This document shows, one piece after another, positions 23,645-62,482 of a DNA stretch of 64,000 nucleotides. The DNA comes from Escherichia phage SKA64. The translations under genes were made by a program, and so were the position numbers. Numbering within the stretch: position 1 is the stretch's first letter; the number at the start of each line of letters is the position of its first letter. The notes under the pieces were generated by a model, which searched no databases, was not told where the DNA came from, and saw nothing but the letters and a program-made list of their open reading frames with translations. The stretch lies in sequence record OM362897.1, one strand, 5' to 3'.

Positions 23645-24198
23645 ATACAGGTGTGATTGCCGAAGCCATCCAGAGTTATGGACGCTTTGCTGAAATGTTA
23701 GATGTTCCTTATTTAGTGGATGCAGATATTTTGGCATTCACACTGCCACCTGGCAAAGAAGATGCTCCTTTGGGGCATCCTAATGGGAAGTTTTATGTTG
23801 CCAGTGCCGAGCAATCATTCTTGCAAATGGAAAAGGATGGCTACGAGTTTATCGCTGGTCATCCCTACATGGCCCTGACACCATGTTACCGCACAGAGGA
23901 AGTGTTGGATGATTTTCACTTCAACATCTTCTTGAAGCTGGAGTTGATTGAGTTCTATCCCAGCTTTGGTGAAGTGAAAGAGTATGCCGAAGAAATGCGA
24001 TACTTCTTCTGGACCTACTACAAAGTCCAAACAAGAATTGTAGAAACAGAAATAGGGCTTGACGTGGAAGACATGAATGGTTTAGAATTAGGGTCATTCG
24101 GAACAAGATTGTCCCCACAAGGTCATCCATATATTTATGCAACAGCCATAGCCGAACCTCGTGCATCTATGGCAATTAACAGGAGGAATCATGATTAA
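23641..24198 (+). CDS. hypothetical protein (185 aa)
   Basis: ORF track; GGAGGAAGG RBS. Confidence 0.6.
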   Translation: MNTGVIAEAIQSYGRFAEMLDVPYLVDADILAFTLPPGKEDAPLGHPNGKFYVASAEQSFLQMEKDGYEFIAGHPYMALTPCYRTEEVLDDFHFNIFLKLELIEFYPSFGEVKEYAEEMRYFFWTYYKVQTRIVETEIGLDVEDMNGLELGSFGTRLSPQGHPYIYATAIAEPRASMAINRRNHD

Positions 24199-25579
24199 TA
24201 AATTTGCCCGTAAACAGGAAGTTGCTGAAGCAGCACGTCGCGCTGGTGTGTATGACAAATTGTGTGAAGGTATTGTGAAGGTGTATGGCTGGGAGGGAGA
24301 AGATGATCCAACCTGTTCAGGTGATTTTGCAATGAACGATATGACCTTCCCATATATTTCCTACAATGCCTCCACTGGTGAAATAAACGGTGTAACCAGC
24401 ACCAGTGTTGATCGTTATCCAGACGCAGAACAAACCACAGGAGGTTACATGTTAGATCTGATTCTTAAGAAATCAGGGTTATTGGGAATCGAAGACGTTT
24501 TCGTAGATGCAGATAGTTTATCATTAGGAGATGTTGTTAAACTACTGGTAGACTTTAGATTTGCAACAGGTAAAAGCTTCTGGAAGCCAGAAGATGCTGA
24601 ACGTTTGAAGACAATCGATCCAAGTATGTATGAACTGCCACAATATAAAGATAAACAATTCCGCAAGGTTATCTTCTTTGATCGTCAAGCAGGCTTAGAT
24701 GCAATGCATATTGAAGTTGGGGATTTACCACGCCCACACTCTGCTGCTACTGGTGATCGCGGCCTTGTAGAAGTCACGGCTCAAGAATTTAAAAATATGT
24801 TTGCTGCGAAATACGATGAAGCTGCGCCTGTGCCAAGTATTGAGGAGCAAGAGGAAGAACAGTTTGTAGCGGAAGATACTGCATTTGAATATCTGCCGAA
24901 CACAGGTGTTATGCCTTCAGAAGATTTCGTGCAGGTTCGCTTCAACAATGGTCAAACAGATGTTGCTAAGGGAACAGTATTCACTTGGAATATCGACAAT
25001 CTGGAAGAGTGGGCGATTAAAGAATACTTCATTCTCCCGCGCACGGCAAAATACAACTATAATAATGGTGGACACCGCCCTTGTGGTGGTCACGTAGAAG
25101 TTCTCTTTCGTGACGGAACTACGGATAGTGGATCGGCTACGCATTTCACTTGGGGTCATGTTGGATATGATCGGGATATTGTTGGTTGGCTTCCAACTAA
25201 CAACCCTAAACCACGTTACCGTAAGCCTCGTAAGAAGCCTCCGGTAGGTAAGAAGAGTGTCGTTCGTGTCCTCTACACTACACAACAGACATACACATTT
25301 AAAAATGTGGTTGATGTGCAAGTAACCGAGGAGCGGGTTTATATTCAATATGATCGTGAAGTTACAGAGGGTATCAAAGAATCGGTTACTACCGAAATTG
25401 AAAATAAGCTTGTTATGGCTATCATTGTGGAAGAAAGTAAAGTAGAGAACGGTAAAGCCTATACTGTTCGTGATAGCTTCTTGCGTAATATCGATGGAAC
25501 TTGGGATTATAATGGACACGATGGGACCGCTGTAAAGAACGGTAAGATCATGGGAAGACAATTCCTCTCCAAACGATAA
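24191..25579 (+). CDS. hypothetical protein (462 aa)
   Basis: start set to ATG at 24191 after AGGAGGAATC. Confidence 0.6.
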   Translation: MINKFARKQEVAEAARRAGVYDKLCEGIVKVYGWEGEDDPTCSGDFAMNDMTFPYISYNASTGEINGVTSTSVDRYPDAEQTTGGYMLDLILKKSGLLGIEDVFVDADSLSLGDVVKLLVDFRFATGKSFWKPEDAERLKTIDPSMYELPQYKDKQFRKVIFFDRQAGLDAMHIEVGDLPRPHSAATGDRGLVEVTAQEFKNMFAAKYDEAAPVPSIEEQEEEQFVAEDTAFEYLPNTGVMPSEDFVQVRFNNGQTDVAKGTVFTWNIDNLEEWAIKEYFILPRTAKYNYNNGGHRPCGGHVEVLFRDGTTDSGSATHFTWGHVGYDRDIVGWLPTNNPKPRYRKPRKKPPVGKKSVVRVLYTTQQTYTFKNVVDVQVTEERVYIQYDREVTEGIKESVTTEIENKLVMAIIVEESKVENGKAYTVRDSFLRNIDGTWDYNGHDGTAVKNGKIMGRQFLSKR

Positions 25580-30752: not shown

Positions 30753-30764
30753 GAGGAGATTAGT

Positions 30765-30986
30765 ATGGGTGTTTTTGCAGGTATTGTTGCAGTGGTAAGC
30801 TTTTTTGTTATTGCTTTTATGCTTAGTTTGATTCCAGCTTGGTTACTGTTGCTGGCTTACAACTATGTTGCTGAAGTTATGGGTCATGCAGATATCACTG
30901 TCCCAGTAACCTTCTGGACCGTGGTTTGTGTTTCGTTTATTCTGGCTGTATTACGAGGAATCTTTTCCTCTCATTCAACAAAATAA
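30765..30986 (+). CDS. small membrane protein (73 aa)
   Basis: ORF track; GAGGAGA RBS; two hydrophobic helices. Confidence 0.6.
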   Translation: MGVFAGIVAVVSFFVIAFMLSLIPAWLLLLAYNYVAEVMGHADITVPVTFWTVVCVSFILAVLRGIFSSHSTK

Positions 30987-30989
30987 GTG

Positions 30990-31017
30990 TTGACATAGTT
31001 CTTAAAAAGAGTAAGAT
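30990..31017 (+). promoter_or_regulatory. sigma70-like promoter
   Basis: TTGACA-N16-TAAGAT. Confidence 0.6.
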
Positions 31018-31029
31018 ATATCACATGAA

Positions 31030-31048
31030 GCGGGGAATAGTTCCCCGC
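31030..31048 (+). promoter_or_regulatory. PeSL-like 5' leader stem-loop (only plus-strand copy)
   Basis: GCGGGGAA-TAG-TTCCCCGC between promoter and AGAGGAGAAAAG RBS. Confidence 0.55.
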
Positions 31049-31065
31049 AAAGAGAGGAGAAAAGA

Positions 31066-32040
31066 ATGCAACTTGGTTTCCCCATTATTGATGTAGTTGT
31101 TTTAGTTGGTATTTTAGCATTGTCTATTGGTATCGATTTCTTTGGTCACAAAGAAAATAAAGAAATTTCATTCAAATCCGCAGTTGATTGGTCGATCTTT
31201 TGGATTGGTGTATCATTAGCTTATTATGGTTTTGTATACTTCCAACATGGTGCCGATTTTGCTAACTTGTTTTTAAGTGGATATGTGTTGGAAAAATCTT
31301 TGTCGGTAGATAACTTAGTAGTATTTGTAGCAGTATTCGCAAGTTTTGGTATTAAAAGCACACACTTGCAGCACAAGATTCTACTTTGGGGTATTGCAGG
31401 TGCGATTGTCTTCCGAGGTGTGTTTGTAGCAGTAGGCACTTACTTGTTAAGTTTGGGCTGGTATGTTAATATCTTCTTCGGTGCGGTCATCCTTTTCTGT
31501 GCAGCTAAAATGGTATTTGCTGGAGATAATGACGCAGAAGTTGATTACTCTAAACACTGGGCTACCCGTATTGTTCGTAAACTGTTCCCTGTATCTAATA
31601 AAATGGATGGGGAGAAGTTCTTCACAATCGAAAATGGTGTTCGTGTAGCAACTCCAGCTTTGGTTTGCGTATTCGTGATGGAAATGGTGGATGTAATCTT
31701 TGCAGTAGATTCGGTTCCAGCGGTGATCGCAGTGACACAAGAACCCCTACTTGTATTCTCTTCGATGTTATGTGCAATCTTAGGTCTACGTGCTCTGTTC
31801 TTTGTTCTTAGTGTCGCACTGAAGTATCTGGTTCACTTGGAGAAAGCAGTTATTGTGGTTCTGGTGTTTGTAGGCGTTAAACTGATGTATCACCCGTTTG
31901 CAGAAACATTGCATGAGAAAATGAGTTTCCTGCCAGCACATATTGATCCAACTATTAGTATGTATATCGTGCTTGGTACTTTGGCCCTTGGTGTTATTGC
32001 AAGCTTTATCTTCCCTGAAAAAGAAGAAGCTACTATTTAA
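31066..32040 (+). CDS. TerC/Alx-family integral membrane protein
   Basis: multi-pass membrane protein; LSGYVLEKSLSVDNLVVFVAVF and FGAVILFCAAKMVFAGD blocks resemble TerC/Alx family. Confidence 0.8.
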   Translation: MQLGFPIIDVVVLVGILALSIGIDFFGHKENKEISFKSAVDWSIFWIGVSLAYYGFVYFQHGADFANLFLSGYVLEKSLSVDNLVVFVAVFASFGIKSTHLQHKILLWGIAGAIVFRGVFVAVGTYLLSLGWYVNIFFGAVILFCAAKMVFAGDNDAEVDYSKHWATRIVRKLFPVSNKMDGEKFFTIENGVRVATPALVCVFVMEMVDVIFAVDSVPAVIAVTQEPLLVFSSMLCAILGLRALFFVLSVALKYLVHLEKAVIVVLVFVGVKLMYHPFAETLHEKMSFLPAHIDPTISMYIVLGTLALGVIASFIFPEKEEATI

Positions 32041-35365: not shown

Positions 35366-35559
35366 GAATCCGTATCTATATAATTGATGAAGACATTGGT
35401 GTCCGTTATGATGACGAAAAACGATTCGCACCGATGGGAGGCATATATCCCCCAAGTGTTCTAGCAGTTTGTCGTGATTGTTATATTTATGAAGGTTGTC
35501 GTAACTTCCGTAAATTCGAACTCCTTGCAGATATTGACTTCAATGAGGAGGAGGAGTAA
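35362..35559 (+). CDS. hypothetical protein (65 aa)
   Basis: ORF track; overlapping start/stop. Confidence 0.5.
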   Translation: MRIRIYIIDEDIGVRYDDEKRFAPMGGIYPPSVLAVCRDCYIYEGCRNFRKFELLADIDFNEEEE

Positions 35560-35732
35560 TGAAAATATTACGAGTGAATATTGAAACTGCTTGGTGTGGA
35601 TGCAATGAGGTTGTGGATATCGAAATTGAAGATGATATGTCTCAAGAGGATATAGAAGATCTTGCACACGAAACCTTTCAGGATTATTGTAATTACGGGT
35701 TCCATATTTTAGAGGAGGAAGAAGATGTATAA
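35559..35732 (+). CDS. hypothetical protein (57 aa)
   Basis: hand-translated; GGAGGAGGAG RBS; start overlaps upstream stop, and stop overlaps the next start. Confidence 0.4.
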   Translation: MKILRVNIETAWCGCNEVVDIEIEDDMSQEDIEDLAHETFQDYCNYGFHILEEEEDV

Positions 35733-49377: not shown

Positions 49378-49568
49378 TGAGTTACGATTTAGATTATTTT
49401 GGTATGCCTTACCTACCAGATGAATTTGAAGGTGAAGAAGAACGTGAATGGGACGATGGGGATATCCGTTGTTGGTCTTGTGGTAAAGATATGTCTTATG
49501 AACAACATATGCACAATGATGGTTTCTGTATACATTGTTATAATGAAATTGATCTGGAGGAAGATTAA
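49378..49568 (+). CDS. Zn-ribbon protein (63 aa)
   Basis: ATG after ATAGGAGAAG; CWSCG...CIHC. Confidence 0.5.
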
Positions 49569-49726
49569 TGGGAAATGGTATCATGATTTGCTATAAAATT
49601 GTGCGTATTGTCGGAGACGAAGTTACCACTCGGTATTTTATGATAGAGTCTCAAGCCGATGAGGTTTACAATGACTGGCTTGAAAAGGTGGATACGATTT
49701 TGTATCTAAAGAAACTTTCCGTTTAG
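49568..49726 (+). CDS. hypothetical protein (52 aa)
   Basis: hand-translated; GGAGGAAG RBS; TAATG overlap. Confidence 0.4.
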   Translation: MGNGIMICYKIVRIVGDEVTTRYFMIESQADEVYNDWLEKVDTILYLKKLSV

Positions 49727-49963: not shown

Positions 49964-50549
49964 ATCAAAACAAATCAATATTGCCAAAGAAATTCTTACC
50001 ATACTAAAGATCGCTGATCCTAATTCTGTCTTGGCTGGCGGTGCTGTTCGTGATTGGCGTATTCTTGATATTGCTGGACGTGATCTGGATTTCTATACAT
50101 CCCTTCCTGCACATCGGACTGAAGAACAAATACAAGGATTAATTGCATCTGCTTTAATGGGAACCAATATTCGTAAACTAGGAAACAAAGAGGCTTCTGA
50201 CAATTATGAAGGTGTTACTGGTCTTAAACACGTTTTTGAGTTTGAACGTGATGGTCAGCTTTGCAACCTTATGATTATGGAACCAAGCGTAATGACAACC
50301 TTTCTAAATGAGTTCGATCTGTCCATCTGCCAGGCTGCATTTGATGGGAAGGACTGTTATTATTCTAAAGATTTTGAAACAACCTTGGAAACAGGGATCT
50401 GCTTCTTGCACAAAGATGTTAGAGAAGATGCCAAACATGTTATTAAAATTGCTACACGTTTCCCATATCTTCGTTTTGTGAAAGAGGTTAAGGTTCCACG
50501 TCCACCTCAAGTAGATACCAGATTGGAAGAAGATGATATTCCTTGGTAA
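49956..50549 (+). CDS. minimal nucleotidyltransferase of the CCA-adding/poly(A) polymerase head-domain type
   Basis: LAGGAVRDWRILDIAGRDLDF matches GGxVRD...DxD signature of tRNA nucleotidyltransferases; only 197 aa. Confidence 0.55.
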   Translation: MTKSKQINIAKEILTILKIADPNSVLAGGAVRDWRILDIAGRDLDFYTSLPAHRTEEQIQGLIASALMGTNIRKLGNKEASDNYEGVTGLKHVFEFERDGQLCNLMIMEPSVMTTFLNEFDLSICQAAFDGKDCYYSKDFETTLETGICFLHKDVREDAKHVIKIATRFPYLRFVKEVKVPRPPQVDTRLEEDDIPW

Positions 50550-50556
50550 TTAAAGC

Positions 50557-50586
50557 TTGACAATATTAAACATTTTATGATAGGAT
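50557..50586 (+). promoter_or_regulatory. sigma70-like promoter candidate (near-leaderless)
   Basis: TTGACA-N18-TAGGAT ending 8 nt before ATG at 50595. Confidence 0.35.
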
Positions 50587-50594
50587 AGCATTCA

Positions 50595-50987
50595 ATGACT
50601 GAACGTTCTAAGATAGCTGTTGAAACTGTTTATGGAAACTATACCAGTTTGACACTAGTTGAGAAAAATGTTGTAGGTCTTGACAACTCTTTTTATTTTC
50701 AAATTTTGGTTATTCAAGGTGGAAACAAGAAGCTAACTGCTCGTGTCGAAACATCTGAAATAATTGAAACCACTGTTACAAACAAAGAATTCATTTCACT
50801 GCAAGATACAATCCGAAACGTTATAGACGAAGAAGGCAAAGCTGCCACAATTAAACTCGGAGGTTTCCCAGTGCAAATAGTTCATTTTCCTAATGGTGAA
50901 ATTGGAGTTGGAATAGGTAAAGGTAAATACCTGTTAGAGCAAGATGATATGGAAAGACTCCGCTCTTTCTGTGCAAAATTAATGTAA
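50595..50987 (+). CDS. hypothetical protein (130 aa)
   Basis: ORF track; weak RBS. Confidence 0.5.
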   Translation: MTERSKIAVETVYGNYTSLTLVEKNVVGLDNSFYFQILVIQGGNKKLTARVETSEIIETTVTNKEFISLQDTIRNVIDEEGKAATIKLGGFPVQIVHFPNGEIGVGIGKGKYLLEQDDMERLRSFCAKLM

Positions 50988-51003
50988 TGTAGAGGAGATA
51001 ATA

Positions 51004-51891
51004 ATGTCCGTAATTAATACTGAAACTGATCGTAAAGGCAAAACCGTAACTTATGCAACTGGTATCGTAGACTACGTTAAACTGGATAAATTCGCTGAAC
51101 CTAAAACCTTCCATTGGGAAGGAAAAACGATTGTTTCAACTCACCGAGCTTCTCTTGTTCTGAAAGAGAAAGGTGCTAAACCAGATGAGAAAGGTGTTTG
51201 GATTTCTCTTGGTGACATTGAACTGAAAGAAGGTTATGAAAACCTGCAAGTCAAAGAAGGTGATAATTGGATCACTATTGAAAAAGGTGTAGAAGTAAGT
51301 ATTGATATTGATCGCGTTGATAATAAAGGCGGTAAAACTTACTACAATACTAAAAAATCTCGTATTACAGTATTGTCTACCGATGGTGTTCAGAAGTCTA
51401 ACAAATCTTCTGGCAATAAAGGTTCCAACGATGCTGCTCCTAAGCAGTCCTATAAAAAACGTGATACCGTAGGTCTGGAAACTGGTCACGCAGTAAATGG
51501 TGCACTGGAACTGATTCGTAATGGTGTTAAAGGCGATGCTTTCGATATCGCTGGGGTTGTTCAATCTGCAACTGTCACGCTGAAATCTGAAATTGCTGAA
51601 TCTCGTGGCGTTGATATTAATGATTATGATCTTGGGGCATCTGTTGGTCACGCTATTCTCAATGCTTGTAAAGACCATACCATTAAGACTGTCTCTGTAG
51701 AAGATCTGATTGATTCTGCTCGTAAAGTTCTGGCTCTGTCTGATAAAGTTGCTGCTGCCATTCGTGGTTCCGCAGAACAACCTAAGAAAGAAGAGAAGAA
51801 AGAAGTTAAGAAACCTGAACCACAACCAGAACCAACTCCAAGCAATCAAGAAGAACCTCCAATGGACTTCGACGATGATATTCCGTTCTGA
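51004..51891 (+). CDS. single-stranded DNA-binding protein candidate
   Basis: C-terminus MDFDDDIPF identical to the acidic tip of bacterial SSB; Pro/Glu-rich linker before it. Confidence 0.55.
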   Translation: MSVINTETDRKGKTVTYATGIVDYVKLDKFAEPKTFHWEGKTIVSTHRASLVLKEKGAKPDEKGVWISLGDIELKEGYENLQVKEGDNWITIEKGVEVSIDIDRVDNKGGKTYYNTKKSRITVLSTDGVQKSNKSSGNKGSNDAAPKQSYKKRDTVGLETGHAVNGALELIRNGVKGDAFDIAGVVQSATVTLKSEIAESRGVDINDYDLGASVGHAILNACKDHTIKTVSVEDLIDSARKVLALSDKVAAAIRGSAEQPKKEEKKEVKKPEPQPEPTPSNQEEPPMDFDDDIPF

Positions 51892-51924
51892 TCTTATTGA
51901 TTTATAAAGAGTTTTTATAAAAGA

Positions 51925-51956
51925 AAAGGGAACCTTTGCTGGTTCCCTTTTTTATT
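51925..51956. terminator. bidirectional rho-independent terminator
   Basis: AAAAGGGAACC-TTTGCT-GGTTCCCTTTTTTATT between convergent genes. Confidence 0.7.
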
Positions 51957-54630
51957 AGTCGTAATATTTCAAACCTGTAATGAACTTCGATCCCCAATCC
52001 GCACTTGCGGCGGTGAACGTCAACATCCAAGTTGTAGCTGTACCAGTGAAGACCTCTCGTTGCACAGTACCATCAGTGTGGTAAATGTCCACGCCAGTAT
52101 GTCCATTCTTAGGAATAGTGAAGGTAACAGCACTGGTAGTGTCTCGTGCATAAGAACAAACAAATGGTGTCCCCGCCCAAACTGGATTTGTCATATCGCC
52201 CATCTCAAGCTGTGGAACCCAAGCAATAAGACCTGCCGTACCATCTCCTGCGAAAGTGTCTGATCCACTTGCATTCAAAGCTATAATCTCATAGGTTATA
52301 GATGCTTGTTTGGCAACTGTCACTTTGTGTAGAATTACACGATACCAACCATTCCCCATATCGATTATGTTTGCATCTGCACCTGTAAATGTTCCAGCTA
52401 CAAGATCATAAGTCCCTTCGTTAATCTCATCTCCTGAAGTCAATTTGAGTTTCACTTTAGTGATCCCATCTGGCTTCAAGAATACGGATGCCGCCCAGTG
52501 CTTACCTGCTGTAATATCAGAAGCTGTATTCACTGCTGATAAAATATGTTGTCCTGAAGTTGTAGAAGGTGTTAACTTGTAAGTGTTAGCTGTAGTTCCA
52601 ACCGGAGAGTTGATTGTTGATGCTGTGACTGTCAAGTTCGTCTTCAACCACGGGGAAGCTGTTGTCAAGTTATTGTTGATAAAGATATGTGTACGGTTGG
52701 CTGCTACAACACGTCTACCTTGTGGAGTTGTACCAACATATTCTAAAGGTGCTACGGGAGCAGAACTCTCTGTAGGTACAAGGATATCTCCAGAAGCCCT
52801 GGCATAACGGTTACTCCTGTTGACCTTTACATCCGCCGGAATAGTTTCTTGCGTCAAATCATAGTCCATCACAATCACCACAGCATTCACTGTGAGATAA
52901 GAACTATCTTCGGCAGTTACCACACCTTGATAAGTTGCTCTACAACCGATACGACAACCTCCATCAGCAACCGCTGTAATAACGCCTGTAACGGGGTCAA
53001 CTGTTGCTACCGTAGGGTCATTAGAGAAATACTCAACAACCATACCAGGTAAGCTTGCTGCTCCTGTTGGCGTTATTTCTGCTACCATTGTTTGTGTTGT
53101 TCCTACATCCATCGCAGATAAGCTAGGAGTGTAAACGCTCAATGTTGAAGCATATCCTCCAGAGGTATCTGATAAAGTTGTTCCTTCGGCGTTTAAGGCT
53201 GTCATACCTGCATCAAAACCACCTTCTGCATGGAAAGTCATTAAACCAGTAGATGATATTGTCATGTTTGCAGGGGCAGAAGAAGTGTATTTAATATTGA
53301 AAAGTTTACCTCCTTCTGGGCTAACAGAATGTGTCAACTGTTTAGTTCCACCTACAATACAAATTCCTAAAGAATCTGTAGTTAAGCCAGTTGCCAGAAT
53401 ATCACCCGTAATCACGGAGCTTGCTATTGGTGTGAATTTATTATAGTTTAGACCGCTATTGAACAGATACGAGGCTTTCCCATCTTTCCAAATACCGGAA
53501 TAATACATATCTCCATTATAAACGAAAAAGGTTCCTTGATAACCTAATTGGTTAGTAACATCCATATTCAGCGTATGAACGCTTGTGAGCTTGTTTATAT
53601 CCCAAGAACCCACTCCTTCAGGTTTAACTGGTTTTCCCACTTGGAGTGGATCTCCGCTCGCAGAATCATACCCCAAACCTAAGTTTGCAGTGTAGTTCTT
53701 ACCAATAGCCCACAAGGAATTATTGATCCCAACGAAAAAAGAGTGGCGGCTTGGTGGAAACTTCCATGTTGAGAAACCTGCTGCAAAGGTATCCAGTTTA
53801 GTGTAGGTTGTTTCTGTATTAGACCTAACATATAAGTAGTTTACTGTACCCGTGCCACCGGAGGTATCTCCTACAACTATTGTCTGGGAAACTGTATTGA
53901 TGTAATCTTTGACATACACTGTTTCAGTAGCGGATATCTTAGCATTGACAAAAGCTGTTGTTGTGTTATTATTACCTGCTAAACCTTTACTAGCTCCACA
54001 AACACGCAAGGTTCCCACATTGTTGACATAAGAGCATTGGTTGTAACCTGCATCAAAAGCAACTGCTGCACTTGTTATCTGACGAGGAGTAGAAACTTCG
54101 TTAGTAGTACTTGCACCTAAACTACCTACTGTGTTTTGACCAGATCCGTAAAGAACACCACTATTCATTAACCAGAGAGTGTTGTTATATCCTCCCTTAA
54201 CCTCTTTAAGATTGGCTAAAGAGATAGTCCCTGTTATTACAGATGGAAAGCTGGTCCAAGTAGTTACACATGCGTCCGTACCACCTGCTGCTATAGATCC
54301 TACCAATCCTGCTGTCAATCCTGAATATTGCCATCCCCCACTGTTAGTTTTAATAACAAAACAACGATCTGCGGTAAACACATCCGCTACTACAGTAGAA
54401 GCTAAGTGGAAATTATTGAATCGTGCACTACGAGTTCCATCTGCAATTTCACCAAAAAGGTTTGCGCCTTGAGTAAACAATCTACCATCATTAAGCAAAA
54501 TTGCTAAACTGCTATTAGAATTACCAGCATTATCTGGGTAATCTAAAGTGATTACTTTTTTAACAATACCCGCTGGCAGAGGAACGACACCAGTGCTGGT
54601 CATAATAGTAAATATTGGAATTGGAAACAT
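51955..54630 (-). CDS. tail fibre / receptor-binding protein (891 aa)
   Basis: ORF track; TATGGAGGG RBS; Gly/Thr/Ser-rich, follows fibre genes. Confidence 0.5.
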   Translation of the reverse strand: MFPIPIFTIMTSTGVVPLPAGIVKKVITLDYPDNAGNSNSSLAILLNDGRLFTQGANLFGEIADGTRSARFNNFHLASTVVADVFTADRCFVIKTNSGGWQYSGLTAGLVGSIAAGGTDACVTTWTSFPSVITGTISLANLKEVKGGYNNTLWLMNSGVLYGSGQNTVGSLGASTTNEVSTPRQITSAAVAFDAGYNQCSYVNNVGTLRVCGASKGLAGNNNTTTAFVNAKISATETVYVKDYINTVSQTIVVGDTSGGTGTVNYLYVRSNTETTYTKLDTFAAGFSTWKFPPSRHSFFVGINNSLWAIGKNYTANLGLGYDSASGDPLQVGKPVKPEGVGSWDINKLTSVHTLNMDVTNQLGYQGTFFVYNGDMYYSGIWKDGKASYLFNSGLNYNKFTPIASSVITGDILATGLTTDSLGICIVGGTKQLTHSVSPEGGKLFNIKYTSSAPANMTISSTGLMTFHAEGGFDAGMTALNAEGTTLSDTSGGYASTLSVYTPSLSAMDVGTTQTMVAEITPTGAASLPGMVVEYFSNDPTVATVDPVTGVITAVADGGCRIGCRATYQGVVTAEDSSYLTVNAVVIVMDYDLTQETIPADVKVNRSNRYARASGDILVPTESSAPVAPLEYVGTTPQGRRVVAANRTHIFINNNLTTASPWLKTNLTVTASTINSPVGTTANTYKLTPSTTSGQHILSAVNTASDITAGKHWAASVFLKPDGITKVKLKLTSGDEINEGTYDLVAGTFTGADANIIDMGNGWYRVILHKVTVAKQASITYEIIALNASGSDTFAGDGTAGLIAWVPQLEMGDMTNPVWAGTPFVCSYARDTTSAVTFTIPKNGHTGVDIYHTDGTVQREVFTGTATTWMLTFTAASADWGSKFITGLKYYD

Positions 54631-54640
54631 TTAAACCCTC

Positions 54641-54669
54641 CATAAAAAGAAAGCCCCTTTCGGGGCTTC
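54641..54669 (-). terminator. rho-independent terminator candidate (minus strand)
   Basis: GAAAGCCCC-TTTC-GGGGCTTC followed on minus strand by TTTTTATG. Confidence 0.45.
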
Positions 54670-54671
54670 TG

Positions 54672-56321
54672 TTATCGTGTTACAACAACCATGTCCACGA
54701 TATCACCCACACCAGGATACGTTAATTGCAAAATTGTTACTGCGTTAGCAGTAGTTGCTATTTCTGTATCATTTAGTGCTCCATAAGACGCATCTAGTGT
54801 AACCGTGTGTCCCGTTGTATCTTGAATCAAATAAATCATTGCTGAAAACGCTTTAGGTTTTGTAGAGCCAGTGACACCAGGCCATGCTCCAACTGTCAGA
54901 GCGTCAGTTACTGTAACAACATACATATTGGAAGTTCCAGAAGGAGTCCAAGATGCTCCAGAGTTGGCAGTAGTTGTTTCAAGTTCCATGAAACCTGCTG
55001 TAACTCTAGTTGGTGTTATAGCTTCCGTAGGATCTGATCCTGATATTTCGATCCAGTTTCCATCAGAACGACCATACGTCAAGCCGTCTTGAGGGGCTTC
55101 TGGTATACTAGGAAGAGTTCCTATAAGTGTCCACGTAGAAGAATCTGTTTTCTTAAACACTGCTCCAGTGGTAGTATTGAAGGCGTAATCATTGATAACA
55201 CCGTCTCCTGCGACTGGATTAGTTGTTGCTACAAACCACTGTGCGCCGTCCTTACCGTTGGTCCCATCAGTACCGTTGGTTCCGTTTGTTCCAGGATCAC
55301 CCTTATCTCCTTTATCCCCTTTTTCACCTTTGTCGCCTTTAATACTTCCCATGTCAACAAAAGATGCGGAATTGGTGTCTTGATCGTAGGTATAGATGTA
55401 AAGATTACTAGTGTCTTCAGTTAAGTAAGCATCACCATAGTTATTGTAAACAGGGAGAGCTTCACTGTTCGGAACATGACCTTTAGCTGTAATTGATGTT
55501 CCTCCGAGACTGCCAACATTCATCCATTCCGTAGCATCTTGGACCCAAACATACAAATCATTATTAATTTTATATGCATCACCTACTTCTCCCGTCGGAG
55601 GAAGTTCAGCTTCGCTGTTCAGAACCCCGATAATCTCTAAGCCTGATCCTGTTGCGCCTACTGGTCCTTGTGGACCTAATTCGCCTTGTGGACCTCGCTC
55701 TCCTTGATCACCCTTGTCTCCTTTTGGACCTTTAAGCGAGGCAATAAAATCTACTTCTGTCCCTTCATTACCAGCATCCAGCCAACTTTGATATGCAGAT
55801 TTCCCTTCATCTCCATCTGTTCCATCTAGACCGTCTTTACCTGCCTCACCTTGTGGACCTTGAGGACCAACAATATTACCCATGTTGACCCAAGCTGTCC
55901 CATTAGAGACATAAAGATTACCACTGATAGAATAAGCTTGGCTTACGTTTTCAGAGTTAGGTTGTGGTAAGTTACTTGTAGAAGGCAAATCTCCACGATA
56001 ATCAAAACCGTTGGCGTTAACACCAGGTGCTCCCTGTGGCCCTGTAGGACCAACATCGCCTTTATCACCTTTTATAGAGGTAAGAAAATCATAAACAGAT
56101 CCTGTATTACCATCTGCCAACCATACCTCGTAAGCTGATTTACCTTCTGGTCCAAGAGAAGAAATAAGTTTCCAAACAGAACCATCCCAAGCGTAGATTA
56201 CATCGCCTACGATATAACCATCCCCTGCAACGTTACCTGTAGATGGTAGTTCACTAGTGCTTGCTAATGATCCTTTAATATTGAGTTGAGCACCAGTATC
56301 CCTTTCAAAGAGGCAAGCCAT
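54672..56321 (-). CDS. collagen-like tail fibre protein (C-terminal portion; frame broken at 5' end)
   Basis: Gly-X-Y runs (GDKGDVGPTGPQGAPG, GPQGPQGEAGKDGLDGTDG, GDKGEKGDKGDKGDPGTNG); ATG lies inside a 77-bp tandem repeat. Confidence 0.55.
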   Translation of the reverse strand: MACLFERDTGAQLNIKGSLASTSELPSTGNVAGDGYIVGDVIYAWDGSVWKLISSLGPEGKSAYEVWLADGNTGSVYDFLTSIKGDKGDVGPTGPQGAPGVNANGFDYRGDLPSTSNLPQPNSENVSQAYSISGNLYVSNGTAWVNMGNIVGPQGPQGEAGKDGLDGTDGDEGKSAYQSWLDAGNEGTEVDFIASLKGPKGDKGDQGERGPQGELGPQGPVGATGSGLEIIGVLNSEAELPPTGEVGDAYKINNDLYVWVQDATEWMNVGSLGGTSITAKGHVPNSEALPVYNNYGDAYLTEDTSNLYIYTYDQDTNSASFVDMGSIKGDKGEKGDKGDKGDPGTNGTNGTDGTNGKDGAQWFVATTNPVAGDGVINDYAFNTTTGAVFKKTDSSTWTLIGTLPSIPEAPQDGLTYGRSDGNWIEISGSDPTEAITPTRVTAGFMELETTTANSGASWTPSGTSNMYVVTVTDALTVGAWPGVTGSTKPKAFSAMIYLIQDTTGHTVTLDASYGALNDTEIATTANAVTILQLTYPGVGDIVDMVVVTR

Positions 56322-56454
56322 TGTGCTTCTGTTCCAACAAAACCATTATCAAGTGCGATCTGATAAGCCGATTTACCCCTTTCAAAGAGGCAAGCCATTG
56401 TGCTTCTGTTCCAACAAAACCATTATCAAGTGCGATCTGATAAGCCGATTTACC
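56301..56454. repeat. perfect 77-bp tandem duplication (2 copies)
   Basis: 56301-56377 identical to 56378-56454; 77 is not a multiple of 3. Confidence 0.9.
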
Positions 56455-56772
56455 AGCTTCAGGTATTGTTTCCGACAGATCATCAATTTGTTGCTGCATT
56501 GCCGTAAACTTGGCATTGATAATTGCTATGTCATCAGCGGTCCCAACACTTTGCCATGCAAGGGAAGAAATACCACCTGTGGTGGCTGGCGTAGAGTTTG
56601 CTGGAACTACTTTAGGAAAAGTTCCTTTCCATTGGTAATAATTCCCTTCTGCTGCTAACAGCAAAACTTCACGGGAATTACGTAATGTAAAACCTGCCTC
56701 AAAGCTGCGACGTTTTCGATAAGTAGCTTCTACCAGATCGGCTATCGCACTATTAGGTCTTGTTAAATTCAT
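56305..56772 (-). CDS. tail fibre N-terminal fragment (155 aa), reads into the 77-bp repeat
   Basis: AGGAGAGATAA RBS; ends in GKSAYQIALDNGFVGTEAQWLASLKG motif that recurs in downstream collagen-like ORF, then out-of-frame tail. Confidence 0.45.
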   Translation of the reverse strand: MNLTRPNSAIADLVEATYRKRRSFEAGFTLRNSREVLLLAAEGNYYQWKGTFPKVVPANSTPATTGGISSLAWQSVGTADDIAIINAKFTAMQQQIDDLSETIPEAGKSAYQIALDNGFVGTEAQWLASLKGVNRLIRSHLIMVLLEQKHNGLPL

Positions 56773-56808
56773 TTATCTCTCCTATCATTAGACCATTCTA
56801 TTGGAAGA

Positions 56809-56827
56809 AGAGGGGAGATTCCCCTCT
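56809..56827 (-). terminator. hairpin, weak terminator candidate
   Basis: AGAGGGGA-GATT-CCCCTCT between tailspike and fibre genes; poor U-tract. Confidence 0.25.
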
Positions 56828-56833
56828 ATTCCA

Positions 56834-59800
56834 TTAGGTTGTTGGCACATCTACTACTGGCGTTGGGCGAATAACCGCAGTATTACCTACAGAAACATTA
56901 CTGGAATCATTAGGTATGGTTTTAATTCTAACTCCAGCACTTGTAGGCGTTACAATTGGATCTGCAATGTCTATTTTAACTGGGTTAGTCCACGTATCAT
57001 TATCTTGATAAGGTGCACGAGTAATAACTGTGTCCAAATCTGCTCCACCTACGCCAGCACCAGGAATACGAATACGTGTCCCTGCTGACAGAGGGTAATG
57101 ATACAACCAAGAAGCATTTGTTGCTGTCCCGTTAGGAGTCAAGTTCTGTGTCAGGAAGGTATCTCCTGCCTGTGTAGCTCGAATACCGAAAGCTGGGATA
57201 TCTGGAATATATGCCCCACTTGTTGTTACAAGGAAGAACGTATTATCCGCCTTGACTATCATATCACCTTTGTCAAACTCTTTCCCTGTTGGGAAATGCA
57301 TTCCATCAATGTTTCGACTAGGATTAGGCTCTAAGTAATAAACTTTGCCCGTTGTCCCTACAATAGCTCCAATACCACCTGCGATATTGGTATACATATT
57401 AGCTTCAACATTACAGTTGACACGATGAATATCCGAGTAACGGCAACGGCTCCACTGTGGACGACCAGTAACCATCGTCTTGCCATCTGGGTAACAGTTT
57501 ACGTTAACCATTTCAAGAACAGATTTTTCTCTACGGAAGAATCCATCATAAAATGTCCCTGGACCAGATTCAGGTTGACCAACACAATCGAAGATATTAC
57601 AGGTGATGTTAGACATTGAAAGCCAAGAAGCTATACCGAACAACTGCAATGCAGCGCAACGAATATTTTCAAAGCTAACTCTGTTTTCATAACCTGGCCC
57701 AGCGGAAACTCCCGCAAAAACACGCCCAGTTTTGGTGTGAATGTTACGAACAGAATAGTTAAAGCATGGGTTTGAAGGTCTACCCTGTGCCGGAACTACC
57801 GGATTACCCTCTTCGTCCAGAACTGCGTTAGTTCCCCACTCCAAATAAATCATACGGATATTACTTGCAAGTGTGCTACCGTCTGTTTTAGGCTCTCCGT
57901 AAACACCGTCAATCGTAAAATCTTTACTTCCATACATTACAACTGCGCCAGTTGCCAAACCTGTCCCAACAGATACGGTCTGGTCTGGATCGCCATGAAT
58001 GTTTTCGATAGAGATATTACGACCAACTTCTACGTGGACAATCTGACGACAACGTTTTGCAAAAACGTTACGAATTGTAATATTCTTACAATATTGATCA
58101 TCAGGGATTCCGTAACCATATGGTCCTTTACCAGCTACACCGATACCGATACCCCAGTTGGACAGAGGAATAGGAGCGTTAGTCCCATCGATATTAGACA
58201 GGTAAATATTCTCAATCACACAACCATCGTCATAATGTTTATTGATGACGTTCAGTTCTATTGCATCACCTTGCATGTCCATGAAGGTAAGGTTACGGAA
58301 GACACCACGTGTTACTGGTTCCCCTGTTCCTTGTTGAAGGATGCCATACAACCCGTTTTTAAAAGTACAGTTATCAATTTCAAAAGTACCTGATATTGGG
58401 TTGCCTTGGAATACCAAGCTACCAACTTGACCTGCGCGAGGAGCACCGTCCCACAAACAATCGAACATGCGCACAGCACCACCCCAATACATAACACGAG
58501 AGTTACGGAAAGTTGTGCCTTCTACTGTAGCATTTTGCACACGATAGTCGCGTTGACCACGGAACACACCCCCACGCAAAGTGATACCTTGAATATCAAA
58601 AGAGCTTGTCGTGAAAGTCATATCGCAACCGTAAGCATCGAGAATCTTGCTTTTCGAAGCTTTTGCTGCTAACAGTGCCGCCTGGAAAGCTGCTTCTGGT
58701 GTGGTATAGGTAGTTGTATTGTTAGCAAATTCTGACAAGTAGACAACATCGAATAAATCGTTGTATGTTCCACCACGAGGGGTTAACAGTCCTTCCGTAT
58801 TAGTTAGAACCCATGCGTTTGGACCTAATCCACCGCTTGTCTCTAATGTGTCAGAGGCCAAAATACTTTTTGGTAAACTTCCAGCCCAACGATAACGACC
58901 AGCACCACGTCCAATCGTCTGATTTTTAGCTGTCAGGGTTACGTTATTACCAAAGCTTGTAGGCAAATGGACAAATTGTCCACGTTCAACAGCCAGTGCG
59001 GAAAGATCTACAGATCCCCCAGAATAAGTCATTACTCCAGAAACAGACAAAGATGTTAAAGTTCCTGTGATGTTAGGAGGTAATGTGTAGGAAGACTGTG
59101 CTACCGGATCATACAGAGCTTTAATCCCTGTTAACGATTGCCCTGCTGTTGCGTAAGCCACCTCATCATCTAACAAACCATATTTACGAGCAATAGTTTG
59201 CAGAGGGACTTTATCCATGCTTTCTGTTAGTTCTTCCGTTTTTGTTTCTAAACTAACAAGACGGTTCTCTAGATTAGGATCTGTATCTGCTGAAGCTACG
59301 ATTTTACCAATATAAGCGAAAAGCTTGTTTGGCAGTCCTGTTGCAGGATCGTGTCCCAAAGGTTCAGATAAGATGATCTTACTATCTTCTATACGGAAAG
59401 CTTCCCCCAGAACCTGAATAACACCATTGATCGTAACAATAGCACTATCAAAGATGTAAGGAGGACTGATTACTGTTTCATAACCAGTTGCACCAGAATA
59501 TACCCAAGGTGTGACTTCTGTTGCCAATTGTTCTGTCTTCAATCCCCACAATACCCAGTTGTTATCTCCTACTGGAGTACCTTGCATAGGGATTGGGTTT
59601 ACCAATGTAGCATTAGGAGCATAATAATAACCGCTCAATACCCCATTCTGAAAATAACGAAGTTGGTTAAAAACTGTTTCGTTTGTGCCTTGCGCCCAAT
59701 CCAATGGGCTTTTAAAGAAAAAGTTGTCAACAAGGGCTTTTCTCAGGGTTGGTATCAACCCTGATTCTGTTTCAATACTCTCTGTAGCACTTCCATTAAT

Positions 59801-59887
59801 AACATCATGGAGTTGGTTAGATGAGAAAATAACCAGGTCTACGCCCTGTTCGAGAGACGTTGCTGGATATGTTGGGAATGTTGCCAT
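56834..59887 (-). CDS. tailspike / tail fibre with beta-helix-like repeats (1017 aa)
   Basis: ORF track; repetitive N/G/T-rich strands (NCTFKNGLYGILQQG, NITIRNVFAKRC) suggestive of parallel beta-helix. Confidence 0.5.
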   Translation of the reverse strand: MATFPTYPATSLEQGVDLVIFSSNQLHDVINGSATESIETESGLIPTLRKALVDNFFFKSPLDWAQGTNETVFNQLRYFQNGVLSGYYYAPNATLVNPIPMQGTPVGDNNWVLWGLKTEQLATEVTPWVYSGATGYETVISPPYIFDSAIVTINGVIQVLGEAFRIEDSKIILSEPLGHDPATGLPNKLFAYIGKIVASADTDPNLENRLVSLETKTEELTESMDKVPLQTIARKYGLLDDEVAYATAGQSLTGIKALYDPVAQSSYTLPPNITGTLTSLSVSGVMTYSGGSVDLSALAVERGQFVHLPTSFGNNVTLTAKNQTIGRGAGRYRWAGSLPKSILASDTLETSGGLGPNAWVLTNTEGLLTPRGGTYNDLFDVVYLSEFANNTTTYTTPEAAFQAALLAAKASKSKILDAYGCDMTFTTSSFDIQGITLRGGVFRGQRDYRVQNATVEGTTFRNSRVMYWGGAVRMFDCLWDGAPRAGQVGSLVFQGNPISGTFEIDNCTFKNGLYGILQQGTGEPVTRGVFRNLTFMDMQGDAIELNVINKHYDDGCVIENIYLSNIDGTNAPIPLSNWGIGIGVAGKGPYGYGIPDDQYCKNITIRNVFAKRCRQIVHVEVGRNISIENIHGDPDQTVSVGTGLATGAVVMYGSKDFTIDGVYGEPKTDGSTLASNIRMIYLEWGTNAVLDEEGNPVVPAQGRPSNPCFNYSVRNIHTKTGRVFAGVSAGPGYENRVSFENIRCAALQLFGIASWLSMSNITCNIFDCVGQPESGPGTFYDGFFRREKSVLEMVNVNCYPDGKTMVTGRPQWSRCRYSDIHRVNCNVEANMYTNIAGGIGAIVGTTGKVYYLEPNPSRNIDGMHFPTGKEFDKGDMIVKADNTFFLVTTSGAYIPDIPAFGIRATQAGDTFLTQNLTPNGTATNASWLYHYPLSAGTRIRIPGAGVGGADLDTVITRAPYQDNDTWTNPVKIDIADPIVTPTSAGVRIKTIPNDSSNVSVGNTAVIRPTPVVDVPTT

Positions 59888-59890
59888 TAA

Positions 59891-60226
59891 TTACCCCTTA
59901 TTCTGTGTACGTTTAACTATGTCATCTAGCATCATTTGGATAGTCGCATTCTTGAGGTCCATAATCTTTTCAATTTTTTGCTCAAGGGTGTTGTTATTTG
60001 CCATTAATGTAGAGTTAATTTGATTTAGCATCTGGGTAAGTTCGGCTTTAGTTGCGTAAGTTGATTCAACAAAGACCAACTTCTTCTCTAGCTCTCGACT
60101 TTTCTCCTCCATTTCCTCAAGATCAGAGCCGAATTTATCCATTTTTTGTTTGAAAAAGAACCAGATGACTCCGATTAAAGGGATTATTGCATCCTTTGCA
60201 AGTCCCCATGCTTCTTGAAATTCCAT
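59891..60226 (-). CDS. membrane-anchored coiled-coil protein (111 aa)
   Basis: ORF track; hydrophobic IIPLIGVIWFFF then helical region. Confidence 0.5.
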   Translation of the reverse strand: MEFQEAWGLAKDAIIPLIGVIWFFFKQKMDKFGSDLEEMEEKSRELEKKLVFVESTYATKAELTQMLNQINSTLMANNNTLEQKIEKIMDLKNATIQMMLDDIVKRTQNKG

Positions 60227-60235
60227 AGTGATCCC

Positions 60236-60781
60236 TTATTCCGTCGGTAATGTAGGCCAATCTATAGTGTAAGGATAATCTTTTTGAAGCGGAACACGAT
60301 TTAGTTTAACCACATAAACTTGAAGATTTTTAAGATAAGCTAATTCTTCTTCAGTAGCCATTTCTAAATCTTTAGCATACTGTAAAGGTGTTATAAGTGC
60401 TACCGCTGTTTCTTGTAAAGAGCGAATTTTTGCACTAGCTTGTGTCATCAACTCTTCACGGGAATACTCTTTATCCTTAAGAGTCAAAGTTTCTAAATCC
60501 AGAACCTTGTTTCTAATATCCTCAAAAGTGTCTATATTAAAGTCCACTTGTGCTATAGAAAGATCTTCAGGGCAAAGTAATGTAGGATCAGTGTTCCAAA
60601 ACACAATACGATTTTGATCGTCAAAAACGACTTTCATTTTATCGTTATTGAATTCTGTGCTACGTAAATCATACCAATCGTAACCTTGATCGCAACGAAG
60701 AAAAAGAATGTTCTCTACTTCTACCAATTCTTTTAGTTCGGGATCTTCGGGAATATATCTTTTAAAATTTGTAAATATCAT
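60236..60781 (-). CDS. tail fibre assembly protein (Tfa family)
   Basis: C-terminus ITPLQYAKDLEMATEEELAYLKNLQVYVVKLNRV...DWPTLP resembles Tfa chaperones. Confidence 0.75.
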   Translation of the reverse strand: MIFTNFKRYIPEDPELKELVEVENILFLRCDQGYDWYDLRSTEFNNDKMKVVFDDQNRIVFWNTDPTLLCPEDLSIAQVDFNIDTFEDIRNKVLDLETLTLKDKEYSREELMTQASAKIRSLQETAVALITPLQYAKDLEMATEEELAYLKNLQVYVVKLNRVPLQKDYPYTIDWPTLPTE

Positions 60782-61843
60782 TTAGCCTCCGATATCGTAC
60801 CAGTTTCCGTTAACGTTGCGCTGGAGGCGTTTGAAATAAACCCCACCGATGTTATCCGCAGAACTACGCCCTGTTTCCTGGACAATAATACCAGAAAGAA
60901 CATAACCAGAAGAACAGATATAAGTCCAAGAAACTTCGTTCCCTGGTGGATAATACACACCTTGGCTAGTGTAACGAATATCTCTTACAAAGGTTCCGTT
61001 AGCATAATTGTAGTTGTTTGTAATCTGACTTTGATGATTACTTTCTACATTGTTTATACGGGAAGAGAGGTTGCTGTTAACACTATTCAGGTTGTTTTGA
61101 ACAGTGTTAATATTCGTCTGCAATGTGTTCTGAAGAGAAGTCAAACGAGAATTCAGATAATCTAAGCGAACTAAAGCATTTCCGTTAGAAGTATCTTGTC
61201 CACTGTTTGATCTTGGACTGTCTATTAGAACATAACCTGCATCATATAAACGAACACCTGCTGATACACTACCTGTGCTAGGATTTCTACGATAAATATA
61301 AAGCTGACCTCCACTTTGGTATTCGGCAGAAATCTCACCATTAGTTTGTCCTGCAAAGTTTTTGAAAAACAGTGTCGCAGGATCTGTTGTGGAAGTACCG
61401 TTAACATAAACATCACCACCATAAATAGCACCACCCGCATCACGTTTTACCAACACGTTTGGTGTTACTGTTGAACTAGTGGCATCTGTAATGTTTGCCG
61501 ACAAGTGATTATGACTGTTATCTTGAACTTGGATAGATAAAGTAACTTCTTTATTACCATTCCAAGTAGCCTCACCAGTAGCATCACCTGCCATTGTAAT
61601 CTTAGTTCCAACTAAAGGCAAGTAAGTATCAGGTAAAGTTGGAAGAAAGTCATCCACCAAATAGCGAATCCATAAACCGATATTATTAAGAATCCAGTTC
61701 ATTTCTTCGCAAGTCATGATTTGACCATAATCCATACCAACTGTGCGGATGGTTTCTTTAGGTCTAATTTTGTTTGTGTTTAAAGTTCCTGGGAGCGTTA
61801 CAGTTTGTGTAGCCCAGTCAGGATAATATATTGGCTTCGCCAT
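60782..61843 (-). CDS. tail fibre protein (353 aa)
   Basis: ORF track; immediately upstream of Tfa gene; N/S/T-rich repeats. Confidence 0.6.
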   Translation of the reverse strand: MAKPIYYPDWATQTVTLPGTLNTNKIRPKETIRTVGMDYGQIMTCEEMNWILNNIGLWIRYLVDDFLPTLPDTYLPLVGTKITMAGDATGEATWNGNKEVTLSIQVQDNSHNHLSANITDATSSTVTPNVLVKRDAGGAIYGGDVYVNGTSTTDPATLFFKNFAGQTNGEISAEYQSGGQLYIYRRNPSTGSVSAGVRLYDAGYVLIDSPRSNSGQDTSNGNALVRLDYLNSRLTSLQNTLQTNINTVQNNLNSVNSNLSSRINNVESNHQSQITNNYNYANGTFVRDIRYTSQGVYYPPGNEVSWTYICSSGYVLSGIIVQETGRSSADNIGGVYFKRLQRNVNGNWYDIGG

Positions 61844-61852
61844 TTAAACTCC

Positions 61853-62482
61853 TTAATCTATTTGCTTGAGAAGCGTACACATGCGTCCTGTTTCATCCCC
61901 AGTAGATTCCATGTACAGGGAACCTAAACCACCAATACCATGAGGCGGTTTGGTAGCATAATAAGAACTAAAACCAAAAGCTGATCCTGCTTTTGCTCCA
62001 AGACGGTAGCTACTAATAATAGGGAAAACACTTAGCAACTGCTCTAAAGCTTGATCAGATTGAAGACACAGGTTGTAGAAAAACACATCAAAGGTTTTAT
62101 TCAAACCTACGTAAGTATTAAGCGTTTCACGCTCTGTTCCTGTGAAACGGGCGAAGATATCAATTATGTCACCACGAGTCCCCGATGAGGCTACGCGGTA
62201 AGCCCTGATTTTTAATATTGTTCTATACTCTTCATCATCAGAGCCATTACGTTCGATCCCCATTTCTTCTCCTAAGATATCTAGGTATTTGCCTGTGGCT
62301 GTGGAGATCAAGCGGTGTTTAGCAAGATAGATCATTGCCTGATCTATCTTTTGCTTTTCACTGGATACGATGTAGAGGAGCTTGACAATGTTAGGAGAAG
62401 ATTTAAAATCTTCAATCAGAAGGTTTTTAACATCTTCATTGATACTGGCCCAAGTTGTTACATGGTCAACACTCACTGCCAT
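61853..62482 (-). CDS. baseplate protein (P2 gpI-like position)
   Basis: ORF track; between J-like and fibre genes as in P2-type J-I-H-G order. Confidence 0.45.
   Translation of the reverse strand: MAVSVDHVTTWASINEDVKNLLIEDFKSSPNIVKLLYIVSSEKQKIDQAMIYLAKHRLISTATGKYLDILGEEMGIERNGSDDEEYRTILKIRAYRVASSGTRGDIIDIFARFTGTERETLNTYVGLNKTFDVFFYNLCLQSDQALEQLLSVFPIISSYRLGAKAGSAFGFSSYYATKPPHGIGGLGSLYMESTGDETGRMCTLLKQID

Follow-up and report, generated by a model that had tools for sequence, protein, structure and literature searches.

Collagen-like tail fibers are already familiar from the phAPEC8-like phages of E. coli. The closest described counterparts of the gene considered here are gp087 of phAPEC8 (YP_007348547.1) and its orthologues in other members of the genus Phapecoctavirus. 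In phAPEC8, 10C3_SA_NWU, PNJ1809-36, and Mt1B1_P17, this stretch is occupied by one coding sequence (CDS) of 2025 nt, encoding 674 amino acids and labeled "tail fiber protein". A literature search on a collagen-like fiber in Phapecoctavirus gave no matches. As for fibers in general, phAPEC8-like phages encode three sets of lateral fibers (PMC8594841).

A second group of precedents concerns the assembly of phage genomes, and it is equally relevant. Across 751,567 contigs, the lengths of direct terminal repeats peak at 55, 77, and 99 bp, which are values of the assembler k; the repeats arise when a circular template is cut open by the assembler, so that the same k bases stand at its two ends (CheckV, PMC8116208). 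The length 77 has been recognized as the SPAdes overlap on phage contigs, where one copy was removed by hand (PMC9409062), and circular scaffolds with 77-bp overlaps have been described as well (PMC5671560). Likewise, artificial overlaps of 127 bp have been removed from SPAdes phage contigs (PMC5923482).

The DNA under study is a stretch of 64,000 nt from Escherichia phage SKA64 (OM362897.1), hereafter the window, and it belongs to a Phapecoctavirus, that is, a phAPEC8-like E. coli myovirus of the Stephanstirmvirinae. Its fiber stretch is matched by 70 phage records, with 63 of the matches covering 80% or more of the length and identities reaching 99.6%. The best relative of the source genome is 99.1% identical. 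The fiber gene is flanked by an Ig-like "tail protein" gene and by a colanidase tailspike gene, in the same order as in phAPEC8 and ESCO37, and it shares with the gp087 orthologues both these neighbors and the domains (Tail_spike_N plus collagen). Unlike them, it is interrupted by 76 additional nucleotides and reads as two open reading frames (ORFs). Elsewhere in the window, from position 1 to 24000, the relatives are only 90–97% identical and mosaic, so that the few 1-nt differences seen there are not informative as private indels. The features of the fiber locus, with the evidence on which each was placed, are as follows.

54672 to 56772, minus strand: the underlying tail-fiber gene, orthologue of phAPEC8 gp087 (2025 nt and 674 aa in relatives).
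56305 to 56772, minus strand: upstream ORF of 155 aa (ORF list, Pfam, frames).
54672 to 56321, minus strand: downstream ORF of 549 aa (ORF list, Pfam, RBS, frames).
56300 to 56376: copy 1 of the 77-nt unit, plus strand CCCTTTCAAAG...GATTTAC (Tandem Repeats Finder, copy identity, node coincidence, toy de Bruijn graph).
56377 to 56453: copy 2 of the 77-nt unit (Tandem Repeats Finder, copy identity; 76 nt absent here from six of six aligned relatives).
56300 to 56302: homopolymer CCC, GGG in gene sense, adjoining the repeat; CCCC/GGGG in every relative (alignment, reconstruction).
56226 to 56302: divergence node of the inferred bubble at k = 77, the last 77-mer common to the 3-C and 4-C alleles; not a biological feature.

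The repeat itself is simple to describe. Tandem Repeats Finder places at 56300..56454 an array of period 77 with 2.0 copies, 100% matches, 0 indels, and a score of 310. String comparison gives 56301–56377 and 56378–56454 as the same letter for letter, with the period-77 identity reaching one base further left, and so agrees with the initial annotation, which had reported two identical 77-bp copies within the fiber coding region. The copies are arranged head to tail and abut directly, with no spacer between them, and the unit has 1–2 nt of G microhomology (G/GG) at its flanks. This array is the only tandem repeat scoring at least 60 in the 64-kb window, which excludes chance as its origin. The copy–copy junction of the window reads ...TTGAAAGGGGTAAATCGG..., a pattern also given as ...CTCTTTGAAAGGGGTAAATCGGC..., and a single-copy layout would be ...GAAGCTGGTAAATC..., followed by one copy and then by ...GAAAGGG(G)ATACTGG....

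What does this array do to the gene? The 155-aa ORF comprises residues 1–132 of the native fiber, followed by 23 out-of-frame residues (VNRLIRSHLIMVLLEQKHNGLPL) that come from copy 2 in gene sense, and it closes at the TGA at 56307–56305. It contains Tail_spike_N at aa 12–77 (Pfam PF18668, E = 5e-20) and then a GKSAY...SLKG motif. The 549-aa ORF opens with seven out-of-frame residues (MACLFER) and continues with native residues 133–674, which hold the collagen Gly-X-Y runs (Pfam PF01391) and the distal part. Its start codon, ATG at 56321–56319, is accidental and falls within the repeat, in copy 2 in gene sense; it lies 14 nt upstream of the stop of the upstream ORF. The coordinates of the two ORFs, their different frames, and the location of the second ATG inside the repeat had all been read correctly in the initial annotation. 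The recurrence of a GKSAY...SLKG motif had been seen there as well. In the form GKSAY...S[LI]KG, the motif is found at aa 107 of the upstream ORF and at aa 60 and 173 of the downstream one, each time followed by Gly-X-Y runs. In the window as written, the predicted N-terminal Tail_spike_N module is thus parted from the rest of the fiber. The gene beneath the repeat is most likely the ordinary, already known 674-aa collagen-like tail fiber of phAPEC8-like coliphages, most likely built of an N-terminal Tail_spike_N, three modules made of GKSAY...SLKG plus Gly-X-Y, and a distal part.

This arrangement is private to the window. Among the phage records matching the region, 60 of 60 carry a single copy of the unit and GGGG (a query of 148 nt spans 149 nt in each). 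The copy–copy junction was searched for in one piece in INPHARED, IMG/VR, the JGI metagenomes, and the GTDB genomes, and none of them contained it. The 3-G allele is likewise absent from the 60 phage records, from IMG/VR, and from the JGI metagenomes and GTDB genomes; as a positive control for this search, the wild-type pattern does match an IMG/VR contig. Finally, neither the 155-aa nor the 549-aa aberrant protein has an exact match on record in the collections searched, a gene-position index among them.

The exact size of the lesion is instructive. The fiber stretch measures 2101 nt in the window versus 2025 nt in the relatives, a net gain of 76 nt and not of 77. By alignment, the window differs from the wild type by a clean tandem duplication of 77 nt and is one base short in the adjoining C4/G4 run. 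The relatives read ...TTGAAAGGGGATACTGG... at the site, and the window reads ...TTGAAAGGG|GTAAATCGG...TTGAAAGGG|ATACTGG.... Written on the plus strand, with K standing for 73 nt, the wild type is GTAT-CCCC-K-CC-AGCTT and the window is GTAT[CCC-K-C][CCC-K-C]C-AGCTT. A one-step duplication of the wild type does not yield this string: it would give either a period of 76 with a GGG junction, or a period of 77 with GGGG kept distally, and neither is what the window contains.

Reconstruction of the gene leads to the same description. When one copy is deleted and the run is left at three G, the frame is still broken, because one homopolymer base is missing. The initial annotation had rightly stated that the frame stays broken after one copy is taken out; the missing base had gone unnoticed there. 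When one copy is deleted and one G is restored, the single uninterrupted ORF that the window as written lacks is recovered: its 674 aa are 100% identical to those of the fiber of vB_EcoM_10C3_SA_NWU (WIL78709.1), and the corrected gene differs from that orthologue at 4 nucleotides, all silent. In the 3-G background, genes with one, two, or three copies each terminate prematurely. A mutual compensation of the 1-nt deletion and the 77-nt duplication was considered and discarded: the net shift is +1, and three copies bring the length back into frame but hold stops in copy 2 and copy 3.

How, then, did a perfect 77-nt duplication and a 1-nt contraction come to lie side by side? The answer may be found in the graph on which the sequence would have been assembled. 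At k = 77, the first 77-mer that the 3-C and 4-C alleles have in common, i.e., the convergence node, is 56300–56376, and this is exactly the repeat unit. The window is obtained when "...GTAT + node" is joined to "node + CAGCTT...". This coincidence was explored with a toy de Bruijn graph at k = 77, for which a single-copy version of window 50000–62000 was circularized and supplied with both the 3-C and the 4-C allele. The graph has exactly two branch nodes, 56226–56302 and 56300–56376. When its long unitig is extended through the 3-C arm, the resulting contig starts and ends in the same 77 nt. Rotated without trimming, this contig equals window 50000–62000 exactly (12,001 nt). With the 4-C arm a different sequence is obtained, and the window is not reproduced.

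These observations suggest the following course of events. The phAPEC8-like genome would have assembled as a circle, most likely in a de Bruijn graph assembler working at k = 77; the candidate is SPAdes, whose default k goes no higher than 77 for reads shorter than 250 nt. The reads would have held 3- and 4-base variants of the C/G homopolymer in the fiber gene, and the graph would have formed a bubble there. Opening of the circular path at the branch node of this bubble would then have given a contig with one and the same 77-mer at either end, reached via the 3-C arm. In the original contig, copy 1 (56300..56376) would have been the final 77 nt and copy 2 (56377..56453) the initial 77 nt. Finally, the contig would have been rotated, or two contigs joined, with the 77-nt overlap left untrimmed, resulting in an internal tandem duplication with a 1-nt contraction next to it. 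The length of the repeat, its perfection, its position, and the adjacent loss of one base would all follow because a single homopolymer ambiguity fixed the opening point and trimming was then omitted.

In the public records of Phapecoctavirus, the fiber gene is found anywhere from ~7 kb to ~146 kb across different records of ~150 kb, some of which are flagged as circular; this indirect evidence indicates that genomes of this genus are routinely opened at arbitrary points and behave as circles in assembly. In addition, the cut point coincides with a private indel, which argues that the reads were heterogeneous at the run, since otherwise the match would be an accident of about 1 in 150,000. The comparison with the k-mer terminal overlaps (77 or 127 nt) described for SPAdes contigs of circular or permuted genomes shows likenesses and differences. 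Shared are the length of 77, the perfect identity, and the circle-type genome. The known overlaps sit at contig ends, whereas the copies of the window are internal and in tandem, so that a later untrimmed rotation or join is required; moreover, the break point at a homopolymer bubble, with its 1-nt contraction, is unlike the usual terminal overlap.

On these grounds, we hold it to be very probable that the duplication is an assembly artefact, namely, an untrimmed contig overlap of k = 77 at a homopolymer bubble, and that a single copy is most likely what the phage DNA contains. The initial annotation had left three options side by side: an artefact, a recent duplication, and a switch prone to slippage. 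Strong support for the first comes from a repeat length that equals a default assembler k (55, 77, 99, or 127), from copies that are perfect and abutting, from their absence from the assemblies of relatives, from the break at a branch node of a genome that assembles as a circle, and from the toy graph. The other two fare differently, and they deserve to be weighed in turn.

Could the duplication be real? A recent 77-bp duplication may have arisen in the sequenced stock by slipped-strand or unequal exchange at the G/GG microhomology, together with a separate 1-nt deletion in the G run. The two changes would have inactivated or split the fiber gene, and a bottleneck during plaque purification, on a host for which this fiber is dispensable, would have fixed them. 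The duplication is, after all, present in the sequence as given, the microhomology does flank the unit, and the surrounding assembly is otherwise clean. In addition, the loss of one fiber could be tolerated by a phage with several lateral fiber sets (PMC8594841), so that arguments from viability do not count against a real lesion. However, two independent events abutting to the base are needed, because a simple duplication would add 77 nt and keep GGGG. The second lesion is not even compensating: the net +76 shifts the frame by +1, and copy 2 in gene sense then holds a stop. A real event would also have had to match by chance both the default k of an assembler and, exactly, a branch node at k = 77, and it would have left its trace in this record only among the phage records, viral contigs, metagenomes, and genomes searched. 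For these reasons, a genuine mutation appears unlikely. A related candidate, a true 77-bp direct terminal repeat at the physical ends of the genome, was rejected: it is implausible inside a conserved CDS and absent in the relatives.

Another proposal, the slippage-prone switch, is that the locus is an on/off contingency site, with fiber expression toggled by the copy number of the 77-mer or by the length of the G run. Precedents for such behavior exist in Campylobacter phages, whose receptor-binding genes have hypermutable poly-G tracts of about 9 or more nt. What the window has in common with them is a G run in a fiber gene, of a length differing from that of relatives, and the two run lengths that the artefact requires in the reads could themselves reflect real heteroplasmy. 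The resemblance stops there, because the run of the window counts 3–4 nt, far below the known hypermutable tracts, and both its length and the copy number are invariant in the 60 relatives. The length of the unit, 77 nt, is not divisible by three, one frame of the unit has a stop, and, given the early termination with one, two, and three copies in the 3-G background, no change of copy number reaches an in-frame state. A switch is therefore not supported, and we consider it very improbable.

It is similarly hard to credit a stock in which both lesions are real and coexist with the wild-type allele. Such a population would make a 155-aa stub and a 549-aa collagen-like part, with low-level re-initiation or +1 slippage, and would display its fibers heterogeneously; the chance of this is very slight.

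Lastly, the split gene might be expressed exactly as it is written, either by re-initiation at the ATG at 56321, which overlaps the end of the upstream ORF, or by a +1 frameshift of the prfB type at CUU UGA (56310–56305). The upstream ORF ends in ...CCU CUU UGA A, so that ribosomes slipping by +1 would continue in the downstream frame (L-ERDTGAQ...) without meeting a stop in between, and the predicted product would be a full-length fiber with an insert of 25 residues. The hexanucleotide CUU UGA is indeed common to this site and to the +1 site of prfB (RF2); unlike the latter, the site in the window has no Shine–Dalgarno-like stimulator 3 nt upstream of CUU. Both the shift site and the ATG, moreover, were created solely by the duplication and are conserved nowhere, the ATG pairs weakly with the anti-Shine–Dalgarno sequence (−3.3 versus −7.3 kcal/mol at the native start), and the 549-aa product would be devoid of the N-terminal Tail_spike_N domain, so this reading can be given hardly any credence.

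If the duplication is an artefact, is the 3-base run one too? To place this run in context, private indels were surveyed over the conserved ~40 kb of the window against six relatives, using affine gap costs. Only two were found: the fiber homopolymer and a contraction from A5 to A4 at 49683–49686. The latter shifts the reading frame over the final 16 codons of a small conserved CDS, which has 52 aa in the window versus 55 in the relatives; among the matches listed, A5 is present in 60 of 60 records and A4 in none. With just two private indels in this comparison, the idea of a generally error-ridden assembly was dropped. That a sequence otherwise so clean should have two private homopolymer contractions, both of them frameshifting, suggests that homopolymers were under-called. 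The 3-base run may be miscalled, may come from a minority variant, or may be a genuine frameshift carried by the stock. The removal of bulges by an assembler normally keeps the majority allele; consequently, the 3-C run may be the true majority, and the fiber gene would then be frameshifted even after the overlap has been trimmed.

The main value of these results is that of a sequence-quality flag: the genome is probably 77 nt too long, a conserved tail-fiber gene is mis-annotated as two ORFs, and at least one further suspicious homopolymer frameshift lies at 49683. This matters to whoever compares receptor-binding proteins, predicts host range, or compiles a dossier for phage therapy, because a truncated fiber would be wrongly inferred from the sequence. 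The case also offers a diagnostic that can be reused in other genomes. An internal perfect tandem repeat of 55, 77, 99, or 127 nt, abutted by a private homopolymer indel, is a signature pointing to a de Bruijn contig that was opened at a bubble and kept its untrimmed overlap. As for the phage itself, if the 3-G allele is a real subpopulation, fiber loss would be ongoing during propagation, a matter of modest practical interest.

Several other features of the window and of its relatives, some of them within the fibre gene and others well outside it, are described here. Two sites lie in the fibre gene itself:

56305-56310, minus strand: CUU UGA, at the terminus of the upstream ORF
55273-55281: 9-nt unit CCGTTGGTT, which spans three codons in the collagen Gly-X-Y stretch

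The CUU UGA that closes the upstream fibre ORF corresponds to the +1 frameshift core of prfB, and slippage by +1 at this point would lead into the downstream fibre frame. This motif is most likely accidental, since it is created solely by the out-of-frame reading of copy 2, the second unit of the tandem duplication, and since no Shine-Dalgarno stimulator accompanies it at this position. The CCGTTGGTT unit is present in the window and missing from phage ASO2A; it sits inside period-9 arrays detected by TRF at 55255-55341, and the fibre CDS measures 2016 nt in ASO2A as against 2025 nt. The collagen repeat here varies naturally in copy number and stays in frame.

A comparable division is reported for phage BME3 (Justusliebigvirus), whose tail spike is described as shared between a 102-aa and a 552-aa CDS, the short N-terminal piece being 100% identical to Phapecoctavirus ZCKP1 (PMC12210895). 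Like the fibre gene of the window, this is a split between an N-terminal stub and a distal part, and a further one within the phage group. The BME3 arrangement could be real modularity, or it could be one more frameshift artefact.

Another site emerges from the comparison with relatives:

49683-49686, plus strand: second private homopolymer contraction, within the ORF 49568..49726

Here the window has AAAA, while AAAAA occurs in all six aligned relatives and at the matching site in 60 of the 60 listed phage records. The contraction shifts the reading frame over the final 16 codons of a short, conserved CDS, phAPEC8 gp081/ESCO37_00075, which encodes 52 aa in the window versus 55 aa in the relatives. 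It is probably of one kind with the C-run at 56300, be it an error or a mutation.

The relatives' records have peculiarities of their own:

29480, 36396, 53856 and 54282 (window positions): private single-base differences of phage BI-EHEC
22536-25868 of OR062526.1: annotated DNA polymerase CDS of vB_EcoM_10C3_SA_NWU

The four BI-EHEC differences fall in conserved genes and in non-homopolymer context, and the record (OL505078.1), which has no annotated features in the compared 40-kb stretch, looks to be of lower quality. As annotated, the polymerase CDS is 3333 nt in 10C3 versus 2598 nt in ESCO37, phAPEC8, P3322 and ASO2A; together with the interruption of the 10C3-window alignment at window 48476/48478 (∼48477), this suggests an in-frame insertion of ∼735 nt in 10C3, possibly an intein or homing element. 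The listed matches also include Acinetobacter phage vB_AbaM_ABPW7, Campylobacter phage B15, Klebsiella phage ZCKP1, and Dompiswa phage TSP7_1, which share 96-99% identity with E. coli Phapecoctavirus genomes over the regions searched; given this near-identity to E. coli phages, their host labels are surprising.

Finally, variation among the compared phages is visible at three places:

35545-35560: GAG/GGA trinucleotide run, …GAGGAGGAGGAGTAATG, directly ahead of a stop and a start
∼23760-25210: first mosaic block, phAPEC8 gp042/gp043 region
∼30760-31970: second mosaic block, gene for a TerC-like membrane protein

In the trinucleotide run, ESCO37, phAPEC8, and BI-EHEC vary by a single unit of 3 nt; this in-frame variation is microsatellite-like and falls at the end of a gene or at a ribosome-binding site. 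The first block matches phAPEC8 and is strongly divergent from ESCO37; the second matches ESCO37 and is divergent from phAPEC8 and ASO2A. Judged from these alignments, the mosaic pattern indicates recombination between lineages.
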